Part shown: positions 1 to 19,400 of the stretch, one piece after another
Position numbering within the stretch: position 1 is the first letter of the stretch
Layout of the letters: the number at the start of each line of letters is the position of its first letter
From: Naegleria gruberi
Lineage: Eukaryota
NCBI GenBank assembly: GCA_000004985.1
Contig: GG738886.1
Strand: one strand, 5' to 3'
DNA length: 64,000 nucleotides
Notes under the pieces: generated by a model
Database searches by the model: none
Seen by the model: only the letters and a program-made list of their open reading frames with translations
Told to the model about the DNA's origin: nothing
Made by a program: the position numbers and the translations under genes

Positions 1-109
1 GAAAAAACTGGAATTGACTGAAAGAATAAGGGCAATTAATGAATCTCCACAGGCAGGAGCAGATGTATATCCATTTTCGGACTTGCTTTTGAAATTATTG
101 AAAAAATAA
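1..109 (+). CDS. 3' end of a gene that starts upstream of the window (C-terminal fragment ...LELTERIRAINESPQAGADVYPFSDLLLKLLKK, stop TAA 107..109)
   Basis: The frame is open from the window edge. The codon usage is plausible and the tail is amphipathic and helical. No homology recognised. Confidence 0.3.
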   Translation, partial: KKLELTERIRAINESPQAGADVYPFSDLLLKLLKK

Positions 110-316
110 GAATTTATTGACTTTAGAATACAGGAATTTAATTTTTAAAATGTGTTAATGGATCTTGTTAATAAGGTTGCACATCCTTATGTTTAGTCCC
201 CATAATATAAAGTTGTCCATGTTTGATTCAATCAGTTAACTTTCCAACCGGGGATCTAATATTTACAAGTATATATTTACATTCCAATAATCATCATGTT
301 ATAAATCCAAAACCTA

Positions 317-1571
317 TCAATCTCTAATATTCATAATACAATCTACGAAAGGGTTATTGCTATTGATTTGATTCAACAATCTTTCTTTGAAAATCATTCC
401 TTTTTCGCCAGATTTTTTAATCATAATGAACCCAACTTCTTCACCTGCACAGACTGAAACATCAAAGTTGGAAGGGTTGGTCTGAAATTTGTACCTATCT
501 GATACAGAAAGCAAGGGTAAAAAGTCTAATTGTAACATATTTCTTTCGTAAGAGGAATCAGAGTCTATATAGACATTACCATCATCAGCTACAGCCATCA
601 TTTTGTTTCTCAATGTGAATGCTTTGAAGGTGACATCTGGTACAGTATTGTTGCTGTAGGAGGGGAACAGGGCCAGTTTACCATTTCTATTAATGCAATA
701 TCTTCTATTGATTTGAGCACAATCTTTGTTGCATTCTTTTAAAGCTACATCATAGGTTGAATTGGCTGTGTGAAGGTAGATCTGATACACAGAATTACCA
801 ACCAAAGACATACCACAAAAAGCAAAACCCTTTGGTAAGACAGTTCTATATAAGACTCCTGGTTTAGGGTTATTTGATAATTTATCAAAACTTCCAGAAT
901 GACTCAAATAATAAGTATTAGAAATAATATCATATGTCAAGACAGCAGCATTTGAACCTCCACATCTGACATCTATAACTGTTTCATTTGGAGGTGGAAA
1001 CTTTTGCTGTCCATTACCATCTGAATAATATACTCTTCCAATTTTTCTAAAAGTGTCAGAAGAGCCAATACCTTGAGAACAACAACTTTCATTATTCCAT
1101 CCTCAAAAAAGTAAGTATTTTGATTTAAAACCTACCAGCAGAATACATTTCAAATCCGTCCGTTCCTTTAACAAGACAATAAGTAAAATTTGCTCCACAA
1201 TAAATATCCTCGATATGATCAATGTCGGCTTTCACCAATTGATCTCGTTGATTTGATTTTGGAGCAATCTTTTTCGTTAATAATTGTGTATATTCATTCC
1301 ATCCATTTCCAAAAGCTCGACCATCATTCAACAGAATAAAGGTGTGATTATCTCCACATACTACCTTTTTAATTCCCACTCTATTAATTTCATTCATTAT
1401 TTCTTCAGATTGAAAAAGAAAATGTCTTAGTGTAGGAAATTGTCCTGATCCAACATCGTTCGGATCGTGGTGTACGGAACCTTTGTAGCCAGAATAGGCC
1501 CATGATGAATAATTTCCATGAATAAATAAATATTGGGAGTGATGAGTTCCTTCAAGGTGAAGTCCTTTCAT
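317..1571 (-). CDS. RCC1-like repeat (beta-propeller) protein, about 406 aa, 2 exons (1571..1136 and 1101..317; putative 34-nt intron 1102..1135, GTAGGT..GAG)
   Basis: The ORF-track ORFs 1125..1571 and 317..940 join in frame through a GTAGGT...AG mini-intron. The protein has repeated G-x-x-HT/A-x-x-L-x-DG-x-x-x-x-G-x-N-x-x-G motifs (VVCGDNHTFILLNDGRAFGNGWNEY, RCGGSNAAVLTYD..., MAVADDGNVYIDSD) typical of RCC1/BLIP-II propeller blades. An A-rich tract precedes the ATG at 1571. The 34-nt intron is unusually short, so the exon junction is uncertain. Confidence 0.45.
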
Positions 1572-1683
1572 TTTTTTTTGATTTTACAATAATATTTCCC
1601 ACCACAATGAATATTCCATGAACTAGTAAACCCAGAAAGAAATGTATTGAAATTACACAACCTAAGATATTTGGTTTTCAGTT

Positions 1684-1800
1684 GGAAAATTTTATTTAAG
1701 CTTTTTCTTAATGATGTAAGCCTTCCTAGCTCAGTTGGCAGTAGCGCTGTCCTAGTAAGACAGAGGTCTTGGGTTCGATTCCCAAGGGAGGCATTCTTTT
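1684..1800 (+). repeat. Direct repeat copy 1 (about 117 bp): tRNA-Thr gene plus about 36 bp of 5' flank and about 8 bp of 3' flank
   Basis: The 5' flank ggaaaattttatttaagctttttcttaatgatgtaa, the tRNA, and the 3' flank ttctttta are nearly identical to 3877..3993. Confidence 0.6.
1720..1793 (+). tRNA. tRNA-Thr (anticodon AGU)
   Basis: Cloverleaf: acceptor GCCTTCC/GGGAGGC, anticodon stem CTGTC/GACAG with loop CTAGTAA (U33, AGT, A37), T-arm TTGGG-TTCGATT-CCCAA, discriminator A. TTCTTTT follows the 3' end. Confidence 0.85.
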
Positions 1801-2269
1801 AAGATACACTTGAAATTATATTATCAATGTAATATACAACCTTTTGAACGTTTAAACTTTAAGGATTTTGCTATCAATGTACCATATACCAAACACAATG
1901 TTGGGTGGGATATACGGTCCAATAAAGATGTGTATTTAAAAAACCGAGGTGGTACACATTTCAACTGTTTCTTAAAAGATAACTATACAACGGTGTGATT
2001 TACAATTTTTTATAACGTTATCTAATAAATGAAACTGTTCTTTCAAATCTTCAAATATAGTACCACACTTTTATGTAAATTGGTCGAATTCAGTACCTTA
2101 CTGTAAACATAACATGCCCAAAGATGCTAGCTTCCAAGAGACAAAGAACTAATAACGCAAATTTCGAATATTCAAAAGTCCGCAGAATATTCGAAAAGCA
2201 AGTTAACAACTGTTCAGCTTAAAAAAAAATGTTGCTATTGAATATTCAACAAGATATTCTCAAAAAAAA

Positions 2270-3874
2270 ATGAAGAAGAGCAGCAGCCACAATTTGATAA
2301 CCCTCTCACAACTCGAACAACACGACGGAGTGAAAAATTCACAACTCTGGATACTTCTCTATGGGAAAGTGTACGATATTACTGAATTTGCTGATAAACA
2401 TCCTGGTGGTCGTGAAATGATAGAAACAGCTTGTGCAAGAGATTCTACTGCACTGTTTGAATCGTATCATTTGTCATCCCATTCGATTAGTAGAATATTC
2501 TTGAGAGATGATGGGAATAATAATAATCAGTCGATGATTAAGTATATTGGTGAATTTGATGAAGAAACAAAGCAAGAAGATGTAAATGATTCCAAGATCA
2601 AGTTTAATTTCACAGATTACAAGATTGCAAAGAAACAAGAAAATAGAACGATGAATATTTATGAAATTTTGAAAGAGCAAATAAGAAATGACTTGTTTAT
2701 TCCTGCCCTTACAAGACAAGATTTTAATCTTAACATTAGAAGGGTTTCTCTCTTGAGATTGTTGAATGCAATCTTCATTTTCTCAGGGTTGTTAGCTTGT
2801 CAGCTTTTATCTCAATACTTGACAGGATTACACCTGTCACTTGCCATTATTCTAGCATTCTTGGGAGGTGTATTTCACCACTTGTCCCTTGTCCACGTTG
2901 CTCATGATGCTGGACATGGAAGTTTCACAGATTTCCCAACCTTGTGGAGAATGATTGGACATGGTTGTTCCTATTTGTTGGGACAATCATTCTATCTTTG
3001 GACCATTAGACATAACATTGCTCACCATGTGTAAGTAGCACTTAACTTTAGCAATTAGATTAACATTTATAGATATACGAATATGAGTGAAATCGATCCA
3101 GATATCAGTATTTATGAAAGAGGTAACGTAAATTCACAAGAAAGATCACTACCTGATAAAAAGTATCCTAAATCAGGAGAGAAAACCTCCACCCCAATCA
3201 AGATTATGTCTGTAACTGGTTCAATTGTATTTTTACCAATCATGTATAGTTTAGTTATTGTTTATATGCAACTTAAGGATTTGGCACATTATTGGAGGAG
3301 ACGTGTTAGTGATGGTGTTGGATTTGCATCCCCAACTTGGAGCTTTACAACATTCCATTTCTATGCAAGTAAGATTGTCTTTGTAATGTACCGATTAATC
3401 TTGCCAATGGTCCTCTTTTACTCTACAGATGGTCATTTCGGTAGAAATGCATTAGAATCTGTACTGATATTTAGTGTTACTGAAGTTGTAGCAGGTCTGT
3501 TATTTGGTTTCTTTTCTCAAATCAATCACATCTCTGAGAAGTGTAAATTCAGTCACTTGAAGGAAGGAGCCCTCAACAATAGAGACGAATTGGATTGGGC
3601 AACTATCCAAATCACAACAAGTGTCGACTATTGTCATGACAGTTATTTGTGGACCTATCTATCTGGGTTTTTGAACCACCAAGTTATTCATCACTTATTT
3701 CCAAGTATTAACCCATGGCTATATCCAAAGATTGTTCCAATCGTTAAGAAAGTCTGTAAGGAGAATAACATTGAATATACCATTTACAACAACTTTTGGG
3801 ATGCTATGACTGCTCATGTGAGACAAGTGACCAGTTTTGTGGATACCAAGAAGCTTCTTGCTGAAATAAATTAA
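2270..3874 (+). CDS. Front-end fatty acid desaturase with N-terminal cytochrome b5 domain (delta5/delta6-type); exons 2270..3030 and 3073..3874, 42-nt intron 3031..3072 (GTAAGT..ATAG)
   Basis: Cyt-b5 HPGG heme motif (EFADKHPGGREM) at the N-terminus. His boxes HDAGHGSF and HNIAHH lie in exon 1. After the in-frame intron, exon 2 carries the third box QVIHHLFP (QxxHH, diagnostic of front-end desaturases). The ATG at 2270 is preceded by caaaaaaaaa. Confidence 0.8.
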
Positions 3875-3876
3875 TT

Positions 3877-3993
3877 GGAAAATTTTATTTAAGCATTTTC
3901 TTAATAATGTGAGCCTTCCTAGCTCAGTTGGCAGTAGCGCTGTCCTAGTAAGACAGAGGTCTTGGGTTCGATTCCCAAGGGAGGCATTCTTTT
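3877..3993 (+). repeat. Direct repeat copy 2 (tRNA-Thr plus flanks), starts 2 bp after the desaturase stop codon
   Basis: See 1684..1800; the same 5' flank ggaaaattttatttaagcattttcttaataatgtga and 3' flank ttctttta. Confidence 0.6.
3913..3986 (+). tRNA. tRNA-Thr (anticodon AGU), second identical copy
   Basis: 74/74 nt identical to 1720..1793. Confidence 0.85.
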
Positions 3994-4206
3994 AAGGTAT
4001 AAGCAAACAGAATTGATATTGGATTGTGGACATCAGTTTGTTAGTTAGTAGCCCTGGTATAATACAAACCCTTTTGCACTGAAAAAGATTTTGTAAGTTG
4101 TGACGAACAACCACTCATATTTTGCTTGTGTGTATTGTATTTGTTTCGTATTTGGATGAATTAACTCATTCAAAATAAACAGTGGTCAAAGAATGAATTT
4201 AGGTTT

Positions 4207-4662
4207 TCAATATGCATTCAACTTATCATGGAAAATAGTCCTCGTATTAAGAAATAAGGAAAAAGGAACCAATGTTGCCAAGCTACTAGGAGAGAGAACC
4301 AAGTGCAGACGAAACAATTGCAACTTCAAACAGCTGGTGACAGAAACTCTTGGAGAGTAAGAGGAAAATAGCAAGTGATTGCATTGCTGGAAGAGTAATA
4401 CCAAGTCGAAATTGAAATACACACTATGGAAACAAGACGACAAACAACATGAAAGAACACAAATCAGTGGGATGGACAATGTAAATACACCACCAGATGA
4501 AGTTCCGTTAGACCTTTGAAATGTACAAGTTACAACTTGAATAGGAGAGCTCACCTCCTCGTTGAGTACCTTGTGATGACCGTATAAGATAGCAAGAAGT
4601 CCAAATTTCAACTTTGTTAGAATTTTTTCAATGTTGTCAGCACTGGTCATTCCACTAAACAA
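4207..4662 (-). CDS. Uncertain ORF. The N-terminal 35 aa (MTSADNIEKILTKLKFGLLAILYGHHKVLNEE) look protein-like (roadblock/LAMTOR-like fold?). The rest is C/S/L-rich and may be read-through of non-coding sequence or an unresolved intron.
   Basis: The ATG is preceded by an A/T-rich tract. The composition changes abruptly after about aa 37, where GTGAGC follows. No confident homology. Confidence 0.2.
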   Translation of the reverse strand: MFSGMTSADNIEKILTKLKFGLLAILYGHHKVLNEEVSSPIQVVTCTFQRSNGTSSGGVFTLSIPLICVLSCCLSSCFHSVYFNFDLVLLFQQCNHLLFSSYSPRVSVTSCLKLQLFRLHLVLSPSSLATLVPFSLFLNTRTIFHDKLNAY

Positions 4663-5133
4663 TAACCGTAGATTCTCAATAAATATCTAGATGCAAAATT
4701 GATTAGTGCATCAGGGTACGAAAATGATAGAATTTCAAACAACTGTAGATTCAAAAATAGATCATGTTCATGATGCAAACGAAAAGTCACTAATCACGAT
4801 TCACTACATTTCGGAAGAATATTCATGTTTTTGTGATCCAATGTACTCATTGAGATTGACCTTCTTTATTTACAGCTAAATTCTCTCTACGCTATTTTTA
4901 TCAGTATACTGCCGTATAAAGGTGAACTTGGAAATTAAATAAATTGTAAAGTATTAAATTGGATCAAAAAGGATAAATAGTTTCCAATAAACGCTTGATG
5001 TTTACGAATGTGAAGAGCTGTTCAGAGGCGGTTTATTTTTAAATTCATGGTCTTATCAATTTTGCTATTTCTTTACTCTTTCGGCAAGCATTATTAGAAA
5101 CAACAAGAAAAAAATTAACTAAACATCAACAAT

Positions 5134-5892
5134 ATGATAACTGCCGAACAATTTGGTTTATTAGAATCAGGCCCAACTTTCAACTATTGGATCTACGTGC
5201 CAATAGGATTAACTCTCGCTTCAATGCTCATCTCTGTCATGGCTCAATATTTTTCCTATTTTTGGCCAACCATAGAAATCAAACCACAATTCAAGAATAA
5301 GACAACACATTACGTTTTCCTTTCGTATTGTGTGAATCACTCACTTGCTGCAATTTTGACAACTTGTGTTGCTGCCTATACTTACTATTATGGTAGCTGT
5401 TATGAATCGAATATCTTTTCGATGGAACCATTCGAAATGATGTGTTATTTGATGAATGTCATGTGGTGCACCTTGCAACAGGTATTAATTTATGACTTTT
5501 TGATTTATGCTTTCCATAGATCTTGTCATACCAACAAGTGGATGTATATTCACATCCATAAATGGCATCACGAAAATAATACTCCAAATGGGGTATGTGA
5601 TGCTATTTATGGTGATGCATTTGAAGGAACTTTGGTAGCATACTTTGGAGTTGGTCAAATGATGTTCTTCTCCTTGCCAGCTAGCTCTATTTGTTTATTC
5701 TTATTCTTGATTAGTTTCTTTGTGCAATTAAATCATTGTGGACGAAAGGTCAGAATTCCATATGTTTATACTTACAAATTCCATGCTGTTCACCATAGAC
5801 ATTTCAAGTGGAATTTTGCTGAACATTTGCCTGTTTGGGATTTCTTATTTGGTACAATGAAATTGAATGAAATTAGTGATGAACAGTTTTAA
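5134..5892 (+). CDS. Fatty acid hydroxylase superfamily enzyme (sterol desaturase / sphingolipid C4-hydroxylase-like), 252 aa, single exon
   Basis: Three His boxes in the canonical order and spacing: HRSCH, HKWHH, HAVHHRH. Multiple TM helices. The ATG at 5134 is preceded by aaaaaaattaactaaacatcaacaat. Confidence 0.75.
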   Translation: MITAEQFGLLESGPTFNYWIYVPIGLTLASMLISVMAQYFSYFWPTIEIKPQFKNKTTHYVFLSYCVNHSLAAILTTCVAAYTYYYGSCYESNIFSMEPFEMMCYLMNVMWCTLQQVLIYDFLIYAFHRSCHTNKWMYIHIHKWHHENNTPNGVCDAIYGDAFEGTLVAYFGVGQMMFFSLPASSICLFLFLISFFVQLNHCGRKVRIPYVYTYKFHAVHHRHFKWNFAEHLPVWDFLFGTMKLNEISDEQF

Positions 5893-6096
5893 ATTCTATT
5901 CGAAAGGAAGAACACCAAAAATATAGAAACATGTACATAATAATAATACTAACGAGAAAGTTTCAGTGCGATAACACGGAAACAACCAAAAAACAAATAA
6001 AAACTAATTTAAATTATTAACAAAAAATTATTTTACAAATTTGGAAATATTTCTAATATAGAAATTTTTGAAAAATTACCTTCTCTGAATTGGTTC

Positions 6097-7329
6097 TTAA
6101 TAATTTCTATAATGTTCTTCTCTCTGACTTGTCAAATCTCCATTTCTCATATCATTAACATATGTTTGTCTAATATTCTCCATCATACTTTCCTCAGTTG
6201 CCTTTACAATTTGTTCCTTTTCCAATATTTTCCTCTTTCTCAGATAAGATAATGAATCAGTTGTAGATTTTCTCAGATTTGAATTATCAGATATTGAGAG
6301 AATATTCTGAGTTTGGTCACCAACTTGAGTAGTTTGTAAAATTGAAAGTGAGTAAGAGTAAGCTTGAATGGACTGAAACACTGAGGGGACAATGTCCATT
6401 CTGACAGGTTCTAGATAGGTTGGAGGTTTTGATGGAAGGAATTTCTTGACTTGAATGACATTTCCATTTTGGGAAAGTGATTGTTTGTTGAGAGAATTGT
6501 TGGATTGCAAATTATTTTTGATAAATTGCAAGATTTTCAAACTATTTACATGATTTTTGAATTCCATTGGGAAAATGATCCAATCTTGAGCTGATTTCCA
6601 AATATGGAACATTATCAACATGAATCTGATAATTAATTTTTCATTTACAGATGCATCTCTCATTTCTAATACAGCACCTGATATAAATTCAGTGAATGAA
6701 CAATAGGATTCTGTAAATATTCTGTGAATTCTTTTTCTAACTTGACCACTAATATAATTGGAATATTCATTACTTTCCATATTTGTATAATTGCTATTAT
6801 TCTCGCAAATTACTTTACAACAAGTTATAATAATTTTAGAAAATAAATACAGCATGGTTGATTGCATATTGGATCCTTCATCAACTAGAAATATTATAGG
6901 AAACGGTGCTTGACCGCCATTTTTGGAATTATCAAAATATGTTAATAAGCTCTTCATCGTATTTTTAATCAAAATGGAATTATTCTTATCCGAATCATCC
7001 AAGCATATTATTCCACCTTGATATTCCTCCATATTTAACTGCTCTTTTGATTGAAAAATCACTTTCCGAACATCTTTCGTCTGAATATTCGAAACAGCTC
7101 CATTATTTCTTGAAGAATCCAACATACTTCTCCCCGAAACACCTTTCAATTGCTGTATAGTTGCTACCTGCAAACTAAACGGTATTTCACACTCATTATT
7201 TAACCAACCAGACAACTCCGAAACGTCCAACCTCGAAATTACAAATAATTTTGTTGAATTTCTCGAAGATTTCAAGTTTCCTTGCTGATCAGAAATGTTT
7301 CCTTGATTTGCTGTTGTGTTTGAAAGCAT
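6097..7329 (-). CDS. Hypothetical protein, 410 aa, single exon
   Basis: Long uninterrupted ORF with protist-like codon use. The ATG at 7329 is preceded by an A/T tract. Ser/Asn-rich; no family recognised. Confidence 0.5.
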   Translation of the reverse strand: MLSNTTANQGNISDQQGNLKSSRNSTKLFVISRLDVSELSGWLNNECEIPFSLQVATIQQLKGVSGRSMLDSSRNNGAVSNIQTKDVRKVIFQSKEQLNMEEYQGGIICLDDSDKNNSILIKNTMKSLLTYFDNSKNGGQAPFPIIFLVDEGSNMQSTMLYLFSKIIITCCKVICENNSNYTNMESNEYSNYISGQVRKRIHRIFTESYCSFTEFISGAVLEMRDASVNEKLIIRFMLIMFHIWKSAQDWIIFPMEFKNHVNSLKILQFIKNNLQSNNSLNKQSLSQNGNVIQVKKFLPSKPPTYLEPVRMDIVPSVFQSIQAYSYSLSILQTTQVGDQTQNILSISDNSNLRKSTTDSLSYLRKRKILEKEQIVKATEESMMENIRQTYVNDMRNGDLTSQREEHYRNY

Positions 7330-8072
7330 TTTTTTTATAAAATTTGTAATTTTTCAATTGTTAATGCTGAACTCCTAAAGTTTACAAAAATAGATAGTTT
7401 ACAAAAAATAAATTCCGAAACGGCTCCTTGTGTTTCCAATTGTATTGAAGATAAATCGTTCTGTGATCTGGTAATTGATTATCTCGCGAGATTAAAGGAT
7501 GTTCTTACTAATTAGTTTAGAATACCATAAAAAACAATTTATTCGAAACTAAATCTTTGTTGGTTGACTTTCAGATTTAATATCAGGAATGATGAATGGC
7601 ATCACTGCATGAATGAGAGCACACATGTTTCGAATATGACAAATTGTAATTTAATTATTTGAGTGCGTTTTGAGTTCTGGAAAGAAAACTGAATGTTTGT
7701 AGTACAATTCTATATTGTTTTTAATTTTGATTTTTTTTCCACTTCTGTATTTCTAAATATTCAACCAAGTGAATGATTGGAAAATTCCTCATTCTCTTCT
7801 ACCAGAGTTTCTATTCAATGTGATGTCATTAATAGTTTTGTGGATTCTGGTAATTTGAGCCTTCATCCTTAATATTGGTGACATGTCAGCATTTGAGCTT
7901 TATAAAACTTATTCAGTTGGATGTTGAAGCAAGACTAAATTAGTGATTTGCCAAAAATTGGTAATGTTCAAAATAAATTTAATAAGGAAATGTAAAGCAT
8001 GGAAACATTGGTTGTGTGGTTGTTATAAAACTTCTTCAAATATTAATGCTCAACTTGAAAATTAAAATCACA

Positions 8073-8143
8073 GGGGGCGAGGGGGAATCGAACCCCCGGC
8101 CACAGCTTTGGAGGCTGCGATGTTACCATTACACCACCGCCCC
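8073..8143 (-). tRNA. tRNA-Trp (anticodon CCA)
   Basis: Reverse complement: GGGGCGG TG GTGTAATGGTAACATC GCAGC-CTCCAAA-GCTGT ... GGGGGTTCGATTCCCCC TCGCCCC C. The CUCCAAA anticodon loop is identical to eukaryotic tRNA-Trp. 71 nt. A TTTT run lies just 3' on the minus strand. Confidence 0.8.
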
Positions 8144-8205
8144 TGTACATTTGAATTCTCAAACACAATGATTTTGACCTATCCTTAACTCGTAAAAATT
8201 GTAGT

Positions 8206-9210
8206 TTATTGGATGTTCAAACCAGTTGCCAAAATTGTTTGTTGTCTCAAACTCACAACAACTCGAAGCAATTTAGTTGCCAATTTCGAAGGTTGCTTTC
8301 CACTTGCTTTCTTAGTTTCCTTTACAAGAATTAACAAATCGACTGGAAGAGCAGCAAAAGGAATCACTCCCTTAATCACCAAACTAGCCAACGACAAGGA
8401 AGCACAATAATCATTGGTCATGAGTCCTGAATTCTTGAAATCCTTCTTTTGATTACCTGTTAAAGATTGAACAAAATTGAAAACATTTACAACACAATTA
8501 TTTCCAATGCTAATCATGCAAGAATCCATTTCTGGATATTTGGATCTTATCACATAGATGTGGGAAATTATTTCATTGACCATTTGTGTGTCCTTTGCTA
8601 ACAATTCTTGAACTTGTTTGGCAGTATTCTTGGCATGTTTCCATTCTTTGAAACTGGCCACTACTGCTTCTGTTGTTCCTGATCCAATAACTAGTAATCC
8701 AGTTCCTGTAGCCACTAGAGAACCTCCAAATGTGAGTGGACTTCCCAATAATCCTCCAACTTGGAATTATTTTCATCAAATTCGATTGAGTATGTTGTAA
8801 AACTTACGAATAAGTGCTGCCCCAACAAGATTGGTAGCCGTTCCGTTTGCTTTCTTCTTTGCAGCTTCTTGTTGTTGATAATCTAATGCATGAATCATTT
8901 GTTCTAGTACTGAGATTAATCCCAATCTTTCTTGAATCCATTCTTGAGTTTTTCTTTCAACATTTGAAAGTTGTTCACTCAATAGACTATTGGTTTGATC
9001 TGGTAAGTCATATTTCACAAAAGATTGGTTGTTTGGAGTGAAAGATGGCAATGGCTCCTTTTCATATGGATTAATAACTTGCTCCCTCAACGAGTTAAAT
9101 GATGGATAGCAAACATTACCAGATAAGAGATGTGAACTCTCATTGATTAATGACGAAAGTTCTGGTGCAGGGGTTGAATCTGCATTAGTTTCAGAGTATG
9201 GATAATACAT
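8206..9210 (-). CDS. ApoL-like (apolipoprotein-L family-like) membrane-hairpin protein A; exons 9210..8808 and 8759..8206, 48-nt intron 8760..8807 (GTAAGT..CCAAG)
   Basis: Splicing restores [71 protein letters not shown]. This is collinear with the paralogue at 11765..13090 and resembles the ApoL hydrophobic hairpin plus flanking amphipathic helices (recalled ApoL1: GTTIANVVSGSL...APFTEGGSLVLL...DYGKKWW). The later ALPVDLLILVKETKKASGKQPSKLATKL resembles ApoL1 VSFFLVLDVVYLVYESKHLHEGAKSETAEEL. Confidence 0.6.
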
Positions 9211-9860
9211 GTTGTTGAAATTGATTGGCTGGTTTTTTTCTTTTTGCTATCAGTAATTGTTTGGCTGATTTGTTTTTATAGTAAGCAAGGCAACAACATA
9301 TTTTAGAATCTTAATGGAAAAGGAATATGGAATGGAGTGTAAAAATTAAAGTGCTACGAAGTGTGAAATCACCCAAAAAGGAACAAGTGCTCGCTTTTCC
9401 TGTTAATTGCAATCAACCTTTGCCGACTCGCAACAGAAAGAGATTGTAAGTGGTCCATTTTGTTTAAGGAATTCAATGATTTTCAAAGTTTCCAATTTCT
9501 GTCTTTCCAAATAGAGCTTTTCAACCATTCTCAAAATTGACAATCCATTACAATTCAATAATGAATGGAAACTTGAAAATTACAATTTTTATAAATTTTA
9601 ACTTAATTTTTGACTTATTTCAATATTCACATAAAGAAAATTCGCTTTATAATATCTCCAAATACAATCCCTTACTATGGATATTTAGGTTCATGTACTT
9701 GTTTGGCGCCAAATCACTACAAATTTTTTGTCTTTATTTAAAAAAAAATTGTGCTGGCTGTTGAGGAACATTCACGTGAAAAGCTTCCCTGAAAACGTTT
9801 TATTCTTTGTACCCACCAAGTTATTTGTATATAAATAATCGGAAAATTCTTAGAGAGGAG

Positions 9861-10043
9861 ATGGCAGATTTTACAACTGAGGAATATGTTGCTGTTGCAC
9901 TGTGTTCAGCCTTTGTGATTTCTTTGATATTGATCGTAATTTCTATTGTGGTTGGAGTAAAACTTCATGCCAGAAGAAAACTGCATCAAATTCGAGCACT
10001 TGTTGATGAACAGCAGGAATCGGAAGAAACAAAACAAAATTAA
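9861..10043 (+). CDS. Small single-pass membrane protein (60 aa; MADFTTEEYVAVALCSAFVISLILIVISIVVGVKLHARRK...)
   Basis: ATG at 9861 in good context, one clear TM helix, and a charged tail. Short, so weak. Confidence 0.3.
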   Translation: MADFTTEEYVAVALCSAFVISLILIVISIVVGVKLHARRKLHQIRALVDEQQESEETKQN

Positions 10044-10420
10044 CAAGCTAACAAATCGGAATTTTTGAATACTAGCTATAACAACGTTCTGAATTTCTTG
10101 CACTCAACATAATGAGATAGAGTTTACTATACAAAATATATTGTAGTCAAGCAAGAAAGAAAATACTAAGGAATTGAATCAATTGATCATCTCTTCGCAC
10201 ATTGAACCAAAAGAATTAACCTAAATTCGCCGAACAAATAACAATTATGGCTACCAGTTCTTGTAAGGATTGCAGAAAAAAACTTTAAAAAAATAACACA
10301 ACTTGTTCTTCTGATCTTTAGACAGGCTAATCATCAAAACGTCGTTGTCATCTAGGAAATAACACACTTTGTTATACATCATCATCCTCATCTACTTAAT
10401 ATTATCAACAAAATACAATA

Positions 10421-10924
10421 ATGGCTGAAGACGGAAGAATTCAAACAGTTTGGGTTATGATTTTATTGTTCACTTCTTGTTGTTTCTTTACATTTGTTGC
10501 TATCCTTTTCGGCATTATTGCTTCTGCAATTACCGACCCTAACGAAATGTCTAATGCCATGTCTTGTACAGTGCTGAAACCACAAGTGAATTGTAAAACA
10601 TGTGAAGGAACCCATACTTGTTGCGAAGCTATTGTAAAAGTTGCCCCTGGAACACTCTTTGCTAATGTAACCAATTTCCAACCAATAAGAACAACTGAAG
10701 AATTTAGTAGTGAATCAACCTATTATTCATATGCCGCCAATTCTACAGTAACTTGTTATGTAGGAATTGACCCAGAAAGTGAAGAGGCTCACTATGCCAA
10801 GTATGATGGACCAAAAGTTGAATTGAAGACTGTTGCTATCGTCACTGGTTGCATTGCCATTTGTTATACTGCTGGTTTGATTTTGGCCCCATTCTTCTCC
10901 AAATCTCTTCAACAAACTCACTGA
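10421..10924 (+). CDS. Cys-rich two-TM hypothetical protein, 167 aa
   Basis: The ATG at 10421 is preceded by aaaatacaata. N-terminal TM, a Cys cluster (CKTCEGTHTCCEA), and a C-terminal TM. Confidence 0.45.
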   Translation: MAEDGRIQTVWVMILLFTSCCFFTFVAILFGIIASAITDPNEMSNAMSCTVLKPQVNCKTCEGTHTCCEAIVKVAPGTLFANVTNFQPIRTTEEFSSESTYYSYAANSTVTCYVGIDPESEEAHYAKYDGPKVELKTVAIVTGCIAICYTAGLILAPFFSKSLQQTH

Positions 10925-11258
10925 GAAAACTAATTGTACATTTTGCTAATAATACTTCGTACAAACCTATTATCCAAAAATTCTATTGAATGTTATTTGG
11001 AATTTTAAATTGCAATCATGTGAAATATTTCCGAAATCAAAAATAAAAAAATAAAAAATTAATTTTAATTCAATTTGGCAATACTGCTATTTGTATGTGG
11101 TATGGGGCAGAGAACAGTGAATAATAATGGCAACTCAACTCTTACCATCAAAGTTGAACTCTAGCATCAGTAAAGTTACTGGGCTATTTCTAGCTCTTTT
11201 TATGGTAAGTTCAATAAACTTGTTCTAATACTATTTTCTAGTGAAAATTACCAAGAAA

Positions 11259-11329
11259 TCGGGTGTGGTATAGTGGTAGCATTCCAGACTGTCACTCTGG
11301 CGACCCGGGTTCAATTCCCGGCACTCGAG
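11259..11329 (+). tRNA. tRNA-Asp (anticodon GUC)
   Basis: TCGGGTG acceptor pairs with CACTCGA. Anticodon stem CCAGA/TCTGG with loop CTGTCAC (GTC). T-arm CCGGG-TTCAATT-CCCGG. Discriminator G. A T5 run follows 6 nt downstream. Confidence 0.8.
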
Positions 11330-11538
11330 ATTAATTTTTGACTCTATCTCCACTACTTAAGTTTTAATTTTTTCCTCATATGAATACTGGCATGTAATCA
11401 CCTATTTTACAATTTTCAAATCTTCATCTCCTAATTCCATAGAAAAAATAGTCAAAGGTTAAACTCTTTAATTTTTCTTTCAAAAAATAATGGATGAATT
11501 TTTTGGCGTATATCATTGGTACTGATTATTCTTGAAAA

Positions 11539-11545
11539 GGAAAAA
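11539..11545 (-). terminator. Pol III T-run (TTTTTCC on the minus strand) immediately 3' of the 5S-like gene
   Basis: The plus-strand ggaaaaa abuts the gene's 3' end. Confidence 0.4.
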
Positions 11546-11645
11546 GACTACAGCACCACAGGTTCCCAAGTTGTCTCCAACCTCAGTACTGATGTGGCTC
11601 GACGATGCTTAACTTCTCAAACGGGATGAGGTGCATTATGTAGCC
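11546..11645 (-). rRNA. 5S rRNA-like gene (100 nt; variant with shortened helix II / loop B region)
   Basis: Reverse complement: GGCTACATAATGCACCTCATCCCGTTTGAGAAGTTAAGCATCGTCGAGCCACATCAGTACTGAGGTTGGAGACAACTTGGGAACCTGTGGTGCTGTAGTC. It matches conserved 5S blocks (CATCCCGT, GAAGTTAAGC, AGTACT..GGAGAC, GGGAAyA, GTGCTGTAG). About 20 nt are missing relative to a canonical 120-nt 5S between the 5' GGCTAC and CATCCCG. Confidence 0.55.
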
Positions 11646-11764
11646 AATCATTATTTTAAAATCTTAATATTGAATAAGAAATGATTTGGATATTGTTTTA
11701 AATTTCTTTGAATCTGGTACTTGTAATTAAAATCTGGTATGATTGTGGATAAAACTACAATTTA

Positions 11765-13090
11765 TTAAGGTAAGAAAGTACCAGTTGCTTTTGTTGTTTG
11801 TGCCTTGATTGATTCCAAGATTGGTGTTAATTTGGCAGCCAATTTAGAAGGTTCCTTTCCATTTGCCTTTTTAGATTCTTCAACCAAAATAACCATATCG
11901 ACAGGAATGGAGATGATTGGTACCATACCTTTAATCATTAAACTGGTCAAACTCATAATACCTGTAGCACCATTTGTCAATCCACCACGACTATCCAATC
12001 CTTGGTGTCTATGACCAATAAGGGCATCAACAAATTGTACAACTCCAATAGTGTTTGAGCCAACAGAAATGGTACGAGTATCAATGTATGGATCAGTAAC
12101 TCTGTACTCGTAAATCTTTTTAATCATATCATTGACATATTGAGTATCCTTTGCCAAGAGTTCTTGAATTGCCTTTGCAGATTTCTTGGCATGTTTCCAT
12201 TCGACAACTGAGGCAACAACACTTGTGGTTGTACCAGCTCCAACACATCCAAGACCAGCTCCTGTAGCCAAAAGCGAACCTCCAAGTGTAAAAGGAGCTG
12301 CTACGATACCTCCCACAATCAATGAAGCACCAACAATGTTTGTGGCAGTACCACCAACTTTGGCCTTTGCTGTTTTCTTTTGTTTCTTATCCAATGCACA
12401 GATCATATCTTCAAGCATTTTAATGATTTCCATACGTTTCTTGAGCCATTCTCTGGCAGATTCTTCAACAGCAACCAATCTCATTGCTTGTATCATGTTG
12501 TTATTAATTGGTGGAGGAACAACAGTGGTTGTTTGTTGCACTACAGAAACAGGTGTCATTGGTGAGACAGTCTTTTCAACAGTTGTGGTTGTTTGTTGTA
12601 CAAATTGACCAGTTGGAGTCATTGGTTGGCCGAATTGAGATTGCATCATTTGAGGTTGTTGTTCCATGTATTGAGGATTCATACTTGGTTGTTGTGGATA
12701 GCCATGTTGCATCATTTGAGGTTGACCATATTGTGGAGGTTGTTGGTACATTCCTTGCTGTTGTGGATAACCTTGTTGGTATTGTTGATATTGTGGTTGT
12801 TGCATACCTGGTTGTTGAGGTTGTTGAGGTTGTTGTTGGTATTGTTGTGGTTGCATACCTTGTTGTTGTGGATAGCCTTGTTGTGATTGCATCATTTGAG
12901 GTTGACCATACTGGGATTGTTGCATACCTTGTTGTTGTGGATACATTCCTTGTTGAGGTTGTTGTGGATAACCTTGTTGAGGAGGGTATTGTTGATATTG
13001 TGGTTGTTGGACTCCAGGTTGACCATATTGTGGAGGTTGTTGCATACCTGGTTGAGGAGTTTGTGGAGAGTATTGTTGTGGTTGGTGCAT
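11765..13090 (-). CDS. ApoL-like protein B with prion-like Q/P-rich N-terminal extension, 441 aa, single exon
   Basis: ATG at 13090 in acaaaacaaaATG context. N-terminal about 165 aa are Q/P/Y/G repeats ([13 protein letters not shown]...). This is followed by [74 protein letters not shown] and [27 protein letters not shown], paralogous to 8206..9210 and ApoL-like. Confidence 0.65.
12600..13085. repeat. Coding low-complexity CAA/CCA(TTG/TGG)-rich repeat encoding the Q/P-rich domain of ApoL-like B
   Basis: Degenerate tandem repeats of ttgttg/tggttg on the plus strand. They generate spurious antisense ORFs (12508..13143 etc.). Confidence 0.6.
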
Positions 13091-13564
13091 TTTGTTTTGT
13101 GTTGAAAAATTATATGACTCAAGTCTGTTATTTAGCCTGTTGATTCGTATGAATTCTTTGGTCCGTTGTAACATTCGGAATGTCATTGTCCAATAAAAAT
13201 ACAATGAGAAAGTGACAGAAACAAGTTGCAAAATACAATTGTGGCAATTCAAATATGATTTGTGTGTTAATTGCCAAAAAGTCGAATTATTGTCTTACGA
13301 AAGGAAACATATGCATGTTACTTGGTTGATTTGATCAAGAAAATTGGCAATTCACATCCAAATGTGATTTGATAACTTGTTTGTGCATTCTAAAAGTATT
13401 CTGTTGTATCAACCAAGTTGCTGTTGTAAAGTCTAACTACAGTCAGAGTTGGTTTTAATTGAAGTTTTCCCATAATCCACGTACAGATTTCTTTTTAATT
13501 GCATATGGCACTTCCAAAGCTCCTCTCAATACTTTCAGAATATCAATTCCCATACTAACAAGTT

Positions 13565-16423: not shown

Positions 16424-19400
16424 ATGCTATCATCATCACCGTCATCATTAACAAGTTTAAATAATTCTAATGGGATAAGAACAAGATCAAAGTATCATTC
16501 TTCATCATCCCTTGTACTTTTATTCATCATTATTTCAATGATACTAGTTTCATGTTTCATGTGTGAACCAATTCAGGCCATCTCTTGTAGTGGAATAGAT
16601 TCCAACGACCTCACTGCTTGCTCTGGGATGGGGACTTGTATTCAGGATGAAACATGCCAATGCCTTAACGGATATTCAGGCGCTAATTGTGAGTATGTGG
16701 AGTGTTTTGGAGTTACAAATGAACCTGGTAATGAGGTTTGCTCTCGTCACGGGCAGTGTTCATCACCAGACAATTGTCAATGCGATTCTGGGTATTATGG
16801 CTCTACATGTTCCATCACAACTTGTTTTGAGAAGTGGAGTAACTTGTCGAATAGCAACAACATTTGCTCTGGGCATGGTACTTGTTCATCATTGGACGTT
16901 TGTGAATGTAATGCTGGATACTTTGGTAGCGAATGTGAAAAGGATCTTTTCGCTGGGTACAAACTAATTAGTATTAGCCCAGTAGTGATAGCAAAAAATT
17001 CACCTGACAATGTTGAATTGAAAGCAAGTATTGCCCTTCCTTCAATGGTTCTATCCTCTGCCTACTCACACGATGGTTCACAACCTTTACCATTTGTTGT
17101 TTCCAACTCTACAACTTCTATTGTTATTACAGATACGGTAAATGATGCTTTTGGTCAATTGTTAGTTCAGGAAGCAGATAGAAAAGCAGGTGAACTTTAC
17201 AATCTTCCATGTGATTTTAACATTTCCAATCCCGACCAAGAACTCAATAGTTTGACCATCATTAGAAATGGTGGAGTCTATTGTTTTCCAAATGGTGTAA
17301 CTATAAGAGGACACACATTTATTATTGTCGGTACAGAAACAGTCCTTTTCAAATCTCCTTTTGTATATTATTATGGAGCTTCCTTTTACTATCTGGAATG
17401 TGCCTCCTATAGGAACGTTTTCTGGTTAACCTATGACCAAGGAGATAATGGAAACTTCTTTTCTGGAGATATTCATGGAACTGTTATTGGAATTTCTCCT
17501 TATCATGGAATTCAACTTTACGATAACTTGGTGGGGGCTGTATGGTACACTGGTGGAACAGATATGATTCTATTCGATGTGAATATTTTACCACCAATAA
17601 CCTTCAATTCAAATGAAAGTTTTAGTCGAGATGATTGCATGGAAACAAGTTGTTATGGAATTTCATTCCGATTGAATAATACTTGCTTTGGAAGAGGTCA
17701 TTGTGTGAAGAATGATACTTGTTTGTGCAATACGGATTCATACGGAAGTAATTGTTTAATTTCAATTTGTAATGGTGTCTACGGAAATGAAACCAATGTA
17801 TGTAGTGGTCATGGTGAATGCCAAAGTAAGGACAGTTGTGAGTGCGAAAGTGGTTATTATGGAAATTGGTGTGAATTGACCACATGTTTTGGAGTCCAGA
17901 ATGACCAGCCGAATACTTGTAATGGGCATGGATTGTGTTCCAAATTGGATACTTGTGAATGTGCTTCTGGTTTTGGATATGGTGGTTCAAGTTGTGAAAT
18001 TCCAATCTGTAATGGAACTATGGCTAATGAAAGTAGTGTTTGTCTATCAAGAGGTCATTGTGTCCAACCAAATATGTGTAGTTGCCAATCAAGTTATTCA
18101 GGGTCAAACTGTGAAATTGCTAATTGTTTTGGAATTATTTCAAATGACAGCTCAGTTTGTTCTGGTCATGGGTCTTGTAATTCTGTAGATACTTGCACTT
18201 GTTCCATTGAATACTACGGAGCCGATTGCTCACAATTTGATTGTTATGGCATTCAATCAGTGAATAGTTCTGTTTGTTATGGAAGAGGACAATGTATTAA
18301 TGTTAATACTTGTTCATGTTCACAAGGATACTATGGCAATGAATGTGAAATCTCCATGTGTGATGGTATTTTGGGCAATTCCTCCCAAGTTTGTTCTAGT
18401 TATGGACAATGCAAGGATACGGATGTGTGTGATTGCCAATTGGGCTATTTTGGTGTGTTTTGTAATGAAACAACATGTAATAGTATAGCAATGAATGACT
18501 CAACAGTATGTAATGGACAGGGAACTTGTTGGCCATTGGACACATGTGTTTGCTCCAATGGATATGATGGCTCTAATTGTCAAAATCCTATTTGCTTTGG
18601 AATTGTTTCCACTAATACCTCTGTTTGTGGAGGTCATGGAGTTTGTTCGCAACCAAATATTTGTCAATGCAACCAGGGATATTACGGATCCCAATGTGAA
18701 ATAGTCACCTGTTCTGGTATCATGTCAAATGGATCAACAGTGTGTTCAGGACAAGGGCAGTGTTCTGATATGGACATATGCCAATGCAACAACCATTACT
18801 ATGGATCTAATTGTGAAAAGTTTGATTGCTTTGGTGTATCCTCTCTCTTAAACACCTCATGCTCTGGTCATGGTACATGTCTTGATTACAATACTTGCCA
18901 ATGTTACTCTGATTATTATGGAAATAATTGTGATGTTACCAAATGTTATGGTATTTTCAGTAATTCATCCAATGTTTGTTCATCTAAGGGAAGTTGCCAT
19001 GTACGAGATACTTGTATCTGTTCGAATAATTACCACGGTTCTTATTGTAACATAACAAGTTGTAATGGAGTTTATTCTAATGATGCTTCAGTTTGTTCCG
19101 GTCATGGTTCATGTATTGGGTACGACACTTGTCAATGTTTGAGCGATTATTCTGGAAGTAATTGTCAAGGAGAAATAGTTGACCCATTTGCTGGATTTAG
19201 AATTATTTCAGATTCTTCAGTTTCAATTTCTATTGATTATTTCCTGACAGATTGGCAACCAGTTTTGCAATCCTATACTCGTTACTATGCCTCAAGTTTA
19301 CTTCTTAAAAGTATTTCCTATTTGGATTCAAATATTCAATATCTTCCACATTCGAGTGCAGTTATTCTAAACAGCACAAGTGCACAGGGCATCAATATTG

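Follow-up and report, generated by a model that had tools for sequence, protein, structure and literature searches.

A duplicated tRNA-Thr(AGU) unit on either side of a front-end desaturase gene in Naegleria gruberi

Integrative elements and retrotransposons are generally associated with tRNA genes, and copies of tRNA genes are known to undergo gene conversion. In a survey of 74 eukaryotic genomes, N. gruberi was found to carry 924 tDNAs, including 8 parallel pairs of the same amino acid within 1 kb versus 1.0 expected (PMC2888827, supplement 2), which indicates that local duplicates of the same tRNA type recur in this organism. The flanks of active tRNA genes have been reported to be hypervariable, an effect ascribed to transcription-associated mutagenesis (Thornlow et al., 2018; PMC6130373). 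Here we describe two tRNA-Thr(AGU) genes that bracket a fatty acid desaturase gene in a 64-kb stretch of N. gruberi DNA (the window, to which all coordinates refer).

The direct duplication of the tRNA-Thr gene together with its flanks, proposed in the initial annotation of this DNA, is real and specific to this pair within the window. A repeat search revealed a 125-nt direct repeat on the plus strand, with copy R1 at 1682..1806 and copy R2 at 3875..3999, which are identical at 121 of 125 positions (97%), have a spacing of 2193 and are separated by 2068 bp of unique DNA. According to the alignment, the copies share a 5' flank of 38 nt (35/38 matching), the tRNA gene and a 3' trailer of 11-13 nt (10 nt perfect, or 13 nt with one mismatch). 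The mismatches lie at 1702, 1713 and 1718 in the 5' flank and at 1804 in the trailer, which leaves a perfect core of 85 nt (1719-1803). The duplicated flanks are therefore somewhat longer than first described, when about 36 bp upstream and about 8 bp downstream had been counted and the repeat had been given as 117 bp.

The pair is the sole long non-coding repeat in the window. A 37-nt flank pattern occurred twice in the window and 0 times in 100 shuffles, and the 5'-flank pattern of R1 and R2 is absent from the three other tRNA genes in the window, which argues for a true duplication and against a general promoter motif. The homology ends sharply at the repeat edges: upstream of them the similarity between the two sites is random (11/40), and downstream 162 of 500 dinucleotide shuffles reached at least the real local alignment score. 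A duplication longer than 125 bp, at which a MAFFT hint (1826-1846 resembling 4058-4078) had pointed, was ruled out by the same shuffles. No tandem array was detected by TRF in 1-12000, and with only two copies and unique DNA between them the pair does not form a tandem tRNA array.

ARAGORN and Rfam agree with the initial annotation on two identical tRNA-Thr genes on the plus strand, copy 1 at 1720..1793 and copy 2 at 3913..3986. For both, ARAGORN assigned the anticodon Thr(AGT) and the Rfam model RF00005 gave 53.9 bits, as compared with a gathering score of 29; their identity was confirmed by alignment. The A box TAGCTCAGTTGG and the B box GGTTCGATTCC can be read directly from the sequence, as can a T4 run at 1797..1800, 4-7 nt past the tRNA (twin at 3990-3993), which is the likely Pol III terminator; a T run is found at the same downstream place in all five tRNA genes of the window. 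Recognition by the tRNA model, the A and B boxes and the T-run terminator characterize both copies as nuclear Pol III type 2 tRNA genes, and both look functional. The plain minimum free energy fold of the tRNA-Thr gave no cloverleaf, and such folds are common among unmodified tRNA sequences. A TATA-like element, TTTTATTTAAG, is located at 1690..1700 on the plus strand (-30..-20 of copy 1; twin at 3883-3893), within the distal, invariant half of the 5' flank common to both copies. Positions -38..-19 are invariant among four sequences, namely R1, R2 and two contigs of a second strain (L008 and L009, see below), and all five variable sites fall at -18..-1; we infer from this pattern a promoter role for the conserved segment with its TATA-like element. 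A third, degenerate tRNA gene on the minus strand near 1980-2090 was also considered and rejected, since that region gave no tRNA-like match even at E<=10. The idea had come from a 22-nt inverted repeat (1795-1816/1958-1979), one pair of which is broken in the second strain by T1972C. A scan of JGI metagenomes with the 5' half of the tRNA-Thr gene returned no match.

The shared flanks also bear on the question of whether two tRNA genes of independent origin could have been made alike by gene conversion. As a process known to act on tRNA copies it would account for identical genes, but it creates no homology in unrelated flanks, where 35 of 38 upstream and 12 of 13 downstream positions match, and two fixed flank differences have been kept in both strains. 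This reading is already disfavoured and we consider it extremely improbable.

R1 occupies part of the divergent promoter region that separates an RCC1-like gene from the desaturase gene. The RCC1-like gene (NAEGRDRAFT_70818, EFC41413.1; 317..1571, minus strand) points away from copy 1, its start codon being 110 bp from the repeat. R1 is followed by a 463-bp spacer (1807..2269, plus strand), the upstream region of the desaturase gene, which is unique and has no similarity to the DNA past copy 2. The window contains exact matches to four N. gruberi NEG-M proteins (EFC41342.1, EFC41343.1, EFC41341.1 and EFC41413.1), and the third of these is the desaturase, deposited under the source name 'delta 5 fatty acid desaturase', its regioselectivity being putative. 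An earlier impression that the gene was unannotated in NEG-M, based on the lack of a listed homologue above 58% identity, was corrected by the exact look-up; the homology search had evidently overlooked the nearest cluster, which is represented by a 263-aa fragment.

The product of 2270-3874 is a front-end, cytochrome b5-fused fatty acid desaturase with an HPGG motif and three His boxes, the third of which starts with Q (Pfam PF00173, 2.3e-16; PF00487, 1.1e-24). The span of the coding sequence given in the initial annotation, 2270..3874, proved to be right, but the reading frame is not uninterrupted. Exon 1 (2270..3030, plus strand) encodes the cytochrome b5 domain with HPGG and the His boxes HDAGH and HNIAHH. 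It is followed by a 42-nt GT..AG intron (3031..3072), which is also present in the deposited model and whose splicing restores HHVYTNMSEIDPD, identical in the paralogue P0001. Exon 2 (3073..3874) encodes the third His box, QVIHH, and ends with the stop codon TAA at 3872-3874. An AATAAA hexamer is located within the last codons of exon 2. The first base of R2 directly follows this stop codon, so that the gap of 2 bp formerly placed between the stop and the second copy does not exist. The very tight limits of the duplicated unit and the 5' edge of R2 exactly past a stop codon are not explained by random segmental duplication.

The desaturase is 58% identical to P0001 of N. gruberi, which in turn shares 70% identity with its N. 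fowleri orthologue. A neighbour-joining tree placed the desaturase of the window outside the P0001/P0002/P0003 group, and it paired with P0001 in only 1 of 300 bootstraps. By these comparisons and its intron, the gene is an old resident Naegleria paralogue. In N. fowleri, the locus that carries the paralogue (L005, L006) has no tRNA gene, none was present nearby in the metagenome relative (L001-L003), the N. lovaniensis locus reached via the neighbouring hydroxylase (L007) was not syntenic, and a scan of JGI metagenomes for the desaturase gave only a 24% relative.

These features do not agree with the proposal, also made in the initial annotation, that the repeat marks a tRNA-targeted mobile insertion. 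The element in question would be an integrase-type island or a retrotransposon inserting beside tRNA genes, and such a footprint is suggested by the general association of these elements with tRNA genes. However, the ORF and Pfam analyses revealed no integrase, reverse transcriptase or transposase ORF either between the repeats or next to them, the long ORFs between the repeats being desaturase exons only and the neighbouring ORFs containing no recombinase or reverse transcriptase Pfam domains, so that the segment does not qualify as an integrative element or retrotransposon of this kind. Moreover, the locus has no LTRs or terminal inverted repeats and no target-site duplication at the repeat edges, the duplicated piece is a whole tRNA gene with 38 nt upstream and 13 nt downstream and not the 3' part of a tRNA, and the enclosed gene is old and carries an intron. 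The mobile-element reading is already contradicted by the data, and we assign it almost no probability.

The age of the duplication could be approached through a second, environmental strain, about 1% divergent from NEG-M, which is represented by contigs L008 and L009 of the metagenome run ERR1078381. Both junctions are found in this strain, that of the RCC1-like gene with R1 in L008 and that of the desaturase with R2 in L009, the latter providing independent confirmation of the position of R2. The 5' flank in L008 is of the R1 type (G at -7, A at -2) and that in L009 of the R2 type (A at -7, G at -2), differences that match those of the window. The presence of both junctions and of the same two diagnostic differences in both strains implies that the duplication is older than the strain split; the retention of these differences further implies that the flanks have undergone no homogenisation or conversion since.

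The region 1884-2269 is about 98.7% identical in the second strain at aligned positions, with one 8-bp indel. Across the two strains and three flanks compared, divergence is 4-7% within about 100 bp of the tRNA-Thr and tRNA-Asp genes, compared with about 1% in the remaining intergenic DNA. Past copy 2 the raised divergence spans about 340 bp; this flank (4000..4333, plus strand) is collinear with the DNA past the single tRNA of L008, with 204 matches, 13 substitutions and many indels. The intergenic parts of L008 differ by 6-7%, compared with about 1% elsewhere, and we therefore considered whether L008 is a deeply divergent haplotype. This idea was abandoned because divergence also reaches 4.3% in the 100 bp upstream of tRNA-Asp, as opposed to 0/234 further away; raised divergence thus seems to be general for tRNA flanks and not specific to L008.

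The strain comparison suggested in the initial annotation accordingly gave a divided answer: the second strain has both junctions, including that of the desaturase with R2, and in L008 also a desaturase-less join, which is ambiguous with an assembly misjoin. L008 joins the upstream DNA, one tRNA gene and the DNA downstream of copy 2. It could represent a real, natural desaturase-less allele if the desaturase were an excisable cassette, with homologous recombination between R1 and R2 deleting or circularising 2193 bp. Indeed, L008 matches window 1-1806 at 98.7%, continues through one tRNA-Thr gene and is then collinear with 3997-4333 and not with 1807 onward; its tRNA has an R1-type 5' flank and an R2-type 3' flank, the exact product of a crossover within the 85-nt core; and it is a k=127 contig, the identical core being shorter than k. 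Against this, L009 from the same run has the desaturase with R2 behind it. This contig ends at 3938 (3912+27-1), the point at which the repeat would halt a k=27 unitig, and starts at 1884, leaving a gap just past R1. The desaturase side would then be a dead end and the R1-spacer branch only a short tip. As we understand the behaviour of iterative de Bruijn assemblers, they would in that case connect the upstream DNA through the core to the downstream DNA even if no such molecule existed. Contigs of this organism in ERR1078381 are only 1.2-2.1 kb long, which indicates low coverage. Excision is not demonstrated, because the contig ends also fit a low-coverage de Bruijn misjoin. We regard the cassette explanation as unlikely. 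Linkage of GGTATAAGCAAACAG to a 5' flank of the R1 type (G at -7, A at -2) would correspond to the desaturase-less join, and linkage of R1 to 1804-1884 to the intact arrangement.

The recombination substrate seen in this locus by the initial annotation is thus borne out as far as anatomy goes (direct orientation, 85 nt perfect, 125 nt at 97%), but not as to excision or copy-number change, since the contig ends also fit a misjoin; the repeat pair is only a potential substrate. It appears distinctly unlikely that the desaturase is dispensable and held between tRNA genes that recombine in nature, that strains differ by its presence or absence, with L008 a true empty or deleted allele, and that an excised 2.2-kb circle with the gene and a tRNA might exist. 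N. gruberi keeps its rDNA on a circular plasmid.

The same contig can be read in the opposite direction, as an ancestral empty site, if the desaturase came with one of the tRNA copies on a segment or circle of repeat, spacer and gene by Campbell-type homologous integration at a pre-existing tRNA-Thr gene. The repeat-unique-repeat layout with homology confined to the repeat is as expected for such an arrival, and R1 and R2 differ in their flanks (3/38) to a degree comparable with strain divergence beside tRNA genes. However, with both junction types already in the second strain the event would not be recent. The gene itself, an old paralogue, has an intron and a native composition, there is no known donor locus and the evidence for an empty site comes from the same ambiguous contig. 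We therefore consider an arrival of this kind very unlikely.

Taken together, the locus is probably the result of an ordinary local, DNA-level duplication of one complete Pol III tRNA-Thr(AGU) unit in the N. gruberi lineage, which would have taken place before the split of NEG-M and the environmental strain, with the copies independent since then and the desaturase a resident and not delivered by a mobile element. The duplicated unit would comprise 125 bp, beginning at about -38 and ending a few bases beyond the T4 terminator, so that the TATA-like element and the whole gene are included, with one copy placed between the RCC1-like gene and the desaturase and the other directly past the desaturase stop. 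Copying may have proceeded, for example, by capture of a tDNA fragment in break repair or by template switching at the tDNA, and the repeats might occasionally recombine with each other.

As it stands, the tRNA-Thr pair is one more local tRNA duplication in a tRNA-rich genome (about 900 genes) and matters little; none of the genes involved is unusual, and annotation already existed for the desaturase and the protein-coding genes next to it. The duplicated piece nevertheless closely approximates the minimal Pol III unit, starting at -38 and ending shortly after the terminator, a hint as to the way in which tRNA genes multiply in this lineage, and the pattern of a variable inner flank and a conserved TBP position, known from animals and plants, is repeated in a distant protist. 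If L008 were real, it would represent a clean natural gene loss by recombination between tRNA genes, and recombination would be an observed process. If other tRNA-Thr(AGU) copies of N. gruberi have the 125-bp unit, this would point to a more specific dispersal mechanism.

Compared with known systems, the desaturase segment resembles tRNA-associated integrative elements and tRNA-targeting retrotransposons in having a tRNA gene at each boundary, but differs from them in lacking recombinase or reverse transcriptase genes, LTRs and target-site duplications, in a repeat that is a complete gene with promoter flank and in a cargo that is an old host gene with an intron. With direct-repeat-flanked genes that undergo pop-out, single-strand annealing or unequal crossing-over it shares a 2.2-kb segment between 125-bp repeats, an 85-nt core and the predicted deletion join in one contig, although at the desaturase locus such an event is only a possibility and the join in L008 may be an assembly artefact. 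As in the tandem tRNA arrays of Entamoeba (PMC2888827), tRNA genes are repeated in direct orientation; unlike those arrays, the tRNA-Thr pair has no head-to-tail units or period, but two copies with unique DNA between them. In accordance with the flank hypervariability of active tRNA genes (PMC6130373), all five variable sites of the shared 5' flank are at -18..-1, positions -38..-19 around the expected TBP position are invariant and divergence is raised near tRNA genes, whereas the raised divergence past copy 2 extends over about 340 bp compared with a few tens of bases in that study. From the local same-anticodon pairs and clusters of the eukaryotic survey the tRNA-Thr pair is set apart by its distance of 2.1 kb, outside the 1-kb definition, by a protein gene filling the gap and by a duplicated piece that is only the 125-bp transcription unit and no longer segment or array unit. 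It nevertheless resembles them as a closely spaced pair of identical tRNA genes with the same orientation, an arrangement more frequent than expected from random placement (PMC2888827).

The initial annotation described a desaturase gene bracketed by duplicated tRNA-Thr units, an arrangement borne out by a repeat search over the whole 64 kb, in which a 125-nt direct repeat (R1, 1682-1806; R2, 3875-3999; 97% identical, start-to-start spacing 2193) was the sole long repeat not internal to a coding sequence. The desaturase stop codon (3872-3874) is immediately followed by R2. Two of the five tRNA genes in the window are tRNA-Thr(AGT), on the plus strand at 1720-1793 and 3913-3986 (Rfam, 53.9 bits for each). 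Each repeat unit consists of a 38-nt 5' flank that includes a TATA-like TTTTATTTAAG at -30..-20, the 74-nt tRNA gene, in which A and B boxes can be recognised, and a trailer TTCTTTTAAG(A/G)TA, whose T4 run lies 4-7 nt past the gene. The copies differ at four positions, three in the 5' flank (1702, 1713, 1718) and one in the trailer (1804), and share an identical core of 85 nt (1719-1803). Upstream of the repeat edge the copies match at a random level (11/40 positions), and downstream no similarity above random was found, with 162 of 500 shuffles scoring equal or higher. A 37-nt flank pattern occurred twice in the window and never in 100 shuffles, and was absent from the window's Trp, Asp and Met tRNA genes; ATGT(A/G) directly precedes four of the five tRNA genes and a T run follows all five. 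As judged from sequence, the R1/R2 flank is thus specific to the tRNA-Thr pair. The R1 trailer also overlaps the first arm of a 22-nt inverted repeat (1795-1816/1958-1979, 20/22 complementary); no tRNA relic was found beside the second arm, the second strain described below carries T1972C, which breaks one pair, and the inverted repeat is probably due to chance.

The gene between the copies is interrupted by one 42-nt GT..AG intron (exons 2270-3030 and 3073-3874) and encodes a 520-aa protein with cytochrome b5 and fatty acid desaturase domains. The HPGG motif and three His boxes (HDAGH, HNIAHH, QVIHH) identify it as a front-end desaturase. That the gene might be unannotated, there being nothing closer than 58% among the homology matches, was ruled out by an exact protein look-up, which returned EFC41341.1, 'delta 5 fatty acid desaturase'. 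The cluster that contains this protein, represented by the 263-aa fragment P0068, had not come up in the homology search with the full-length desaturase, so that a missing entry there is no evidence against a close homologue. The EFC41341.1 model (506 aa) differs from ours solely by an extra 42-nt GT..AG intron at 3208-3249, which deletes 14 residues (a MSVTGSIVFLPIMY-type segment). Since these residues are conserved in the N. gruberi paralogue P0001 and its N. fowleri orthologue P0002, this intron is probably over-predicted and the protein probably comprises 520 residues.

The desaturase is 58% identical to P0001 and 53% to P0002, which are 70% identical to each other, and in a neighbour-joining tree it fell outside the group of P0001, P0002 and P0003, pairing with P0001 in 1 of 300 bootstraps; these results make it an old paralogue. 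Its base composition does not differ from that of the surrounding DNA, and no tRNA gene lies within several kb at the N. fowleri locus that carries the other paralogue. The R1 and R2 flanks differ at only 3/38 (5') and 1/13 (3') positions, from which the desaturase is much older than the tRNA duplication. On this sequence comparison, the desaturase was not created by the tRNA-copying event. The alternative raised initially, that the repeat is the footprint of a tRNA-targeted mobile insertion, was not supported: apart from the desaturase exons no long ORF lies between the copies, ORFs neighbouring the repeats contain no recombinase, reverse transcriptase or transposase domains, and neither LTRs nor terminal inverted repeats nor target-site duplications were found at R1/R2. 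Nor was a tandem array found there.

Contigs of a second N. gruberi strain were reached via upstream RCC1-like ORFs in metagenome run ERR1078381 (ENA assembly ERZ929261 and Logan contigs) and are 98.2-99.2% identical to the window. One contig (L008) matches window 1-1806 and carries the R1-type flank (G at -7, A at -2); another (L009) matches 1884-3938 and runs from the desaturase directly into the R2-type flank (A at -7, G at -2) and the tRNA start. These two fixed R1/R2 differences are common to both strains, which implies that the duplication is older than the strain split and that no homogenisation of the flanks has taken place after it. At three more positions a single sequence differs from the rest: -18 (window R1), -10 (L008) and -1 (L009). 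All five variable sites among the four sequences thus lie at -18..-1 and none at -38..-19, for which the chance under random placement among 38 positions is C(18,5)/C(38,5) = 0.017. This distribution agrees with one published for tRNA genes, in which the inner 5' flank is hypervariable and variability dips at the TBP position (PMC6130373). Next to tRNA genes (1572-1681, 3997-4333 and 11159-11258; L008 and the contig L011) the strains are 4-7% divergent and indel-rich, compared with 0.9-1.3% in other intergenic DNA and 0.3-1.1% in coding DNA. L008 diverges by 7% in 1572-1681 and by 6%, with many indels, downstream. We considered whether it represents a deep distinct haplotype; this is countered by the divergence upstream of tRNA-Asp (4.3% over 100 bp, against 0/234 further off), from which tRNA flanks in this genome seem to diverge more in general, fitting their reported hypermutability (PMC6130373).

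After its single tRNA, L008 continues not with window 1807 onward but with the DNA downstream of R2, to which it is collinear to about 4333 (204 matches, 13 substitutions, many indels). Such a join is the predicted product of an R1 x R2 crossover, and is also expected of an ancestral site that never held the desaturase. We nevertheless regard a real desaturase-less allele as unlikely. The desaturase-R2 junction is present in the same run (L009), and L009 ends at 3938 = 3912+27-1, precisely the position at which the first shared k-mer would end a k=27 unitig; k127 in the contig names is consistent with a k series of 27..127. L009 begins only at 1884, so the assembly lacks the 77 bp that follow R1. 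Given a dead end on the desaturase side and no more than a short tip leading from R1 into the spacer, an assembler of the iterative de Bruijn type would be expected to merge upstream, core and downstream sequence, and at k=77 R1 and R2 alone would still share their 84-85-nt core. Of the initial proposal that the repeats are a substrate for recombination, it stands that they are long enough; deletion or amplification of the desaturase through R1/R2 is possible in principle only.

Exact protein matches place the window on a 358,576-bp scaffold of N. gruberi NEG-M; besides the desaturase they comprise the RCC1-like gene upstream of R1 (EFC41413.1), EFC41343.1 (10421-10921) and the C-5 sterol desaturase-like EFC41342.1 (5134-5889; gene at 5134-5892, plus strand). 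The last has a 75% identical paralogue, P0060, on another N. gruberi scaffold, and the N. lovaniensis locus (L007) contains two such genes in tandem; in the window, two adjacent lipid-modifying genes thus each belong to a paralogue pair. The first 12 kb are rich in Pol III genes: two tRNA-Thr, tRNA-Trp (8073-8143), tRNA-Asp (11259-11329) and, about 220 bp from the latter, a borderline 5S rRNA match (11545-11649, minus strand; 38.4 bits, gathering score 38), making five in 10 kb if this is counted. Two minus-strand ORFs, 8206-9210 (without Pfam match) and 11765-13252 (with an additional long Q/P-rich N-terminal half), share a similar C-terminal region (…GGSL.ATG.GL…VEWKHAK…ELLAKDTQ…) and look like local paralogues, each adjoining a Pol III gene. 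At 16600-28000 (plus strand) lies a very long coding region with dozens of cysteine-rich repeats of EGF-like CxxxGxC...C pattern, spaced in multiples of 117 nt.

We propose that a minimal tRNA gene unit was copied at the DNA level into a site about 2 kb off, its orientation unchanged, and that selection has retained both copies because each is equipped with an upstream element, an internal promoter and a terminator. It is unlikely that the copying went through a processed Pol III transcript, since the unit takes in 38 nt of upstream DNA and lacks an A-tail. In other organisms, TFIIIB and TFIIIC cover a stretch of the tRNA gene that roughly corresponds to the unit limits (-38 to +87); a plausible though speculative route would be breakage, or a template switch, where this complex ends. 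Among the 924 tDNAs in the 41 Mb of N. gruberi, 77 adjacent pairs within 1 kb (39 expected) and 8 same-amino-acid parallel pairs (1.0 expected) were reported (PMC2888827), and local same-type duplicates are thus recurrent, if infrequent. The R1/R2 pair, 2.1 kb apart, falls outside the 1-kb definition of that survey; the tRNA-Thr duplication is an ordinary member of an already known kind of feature.
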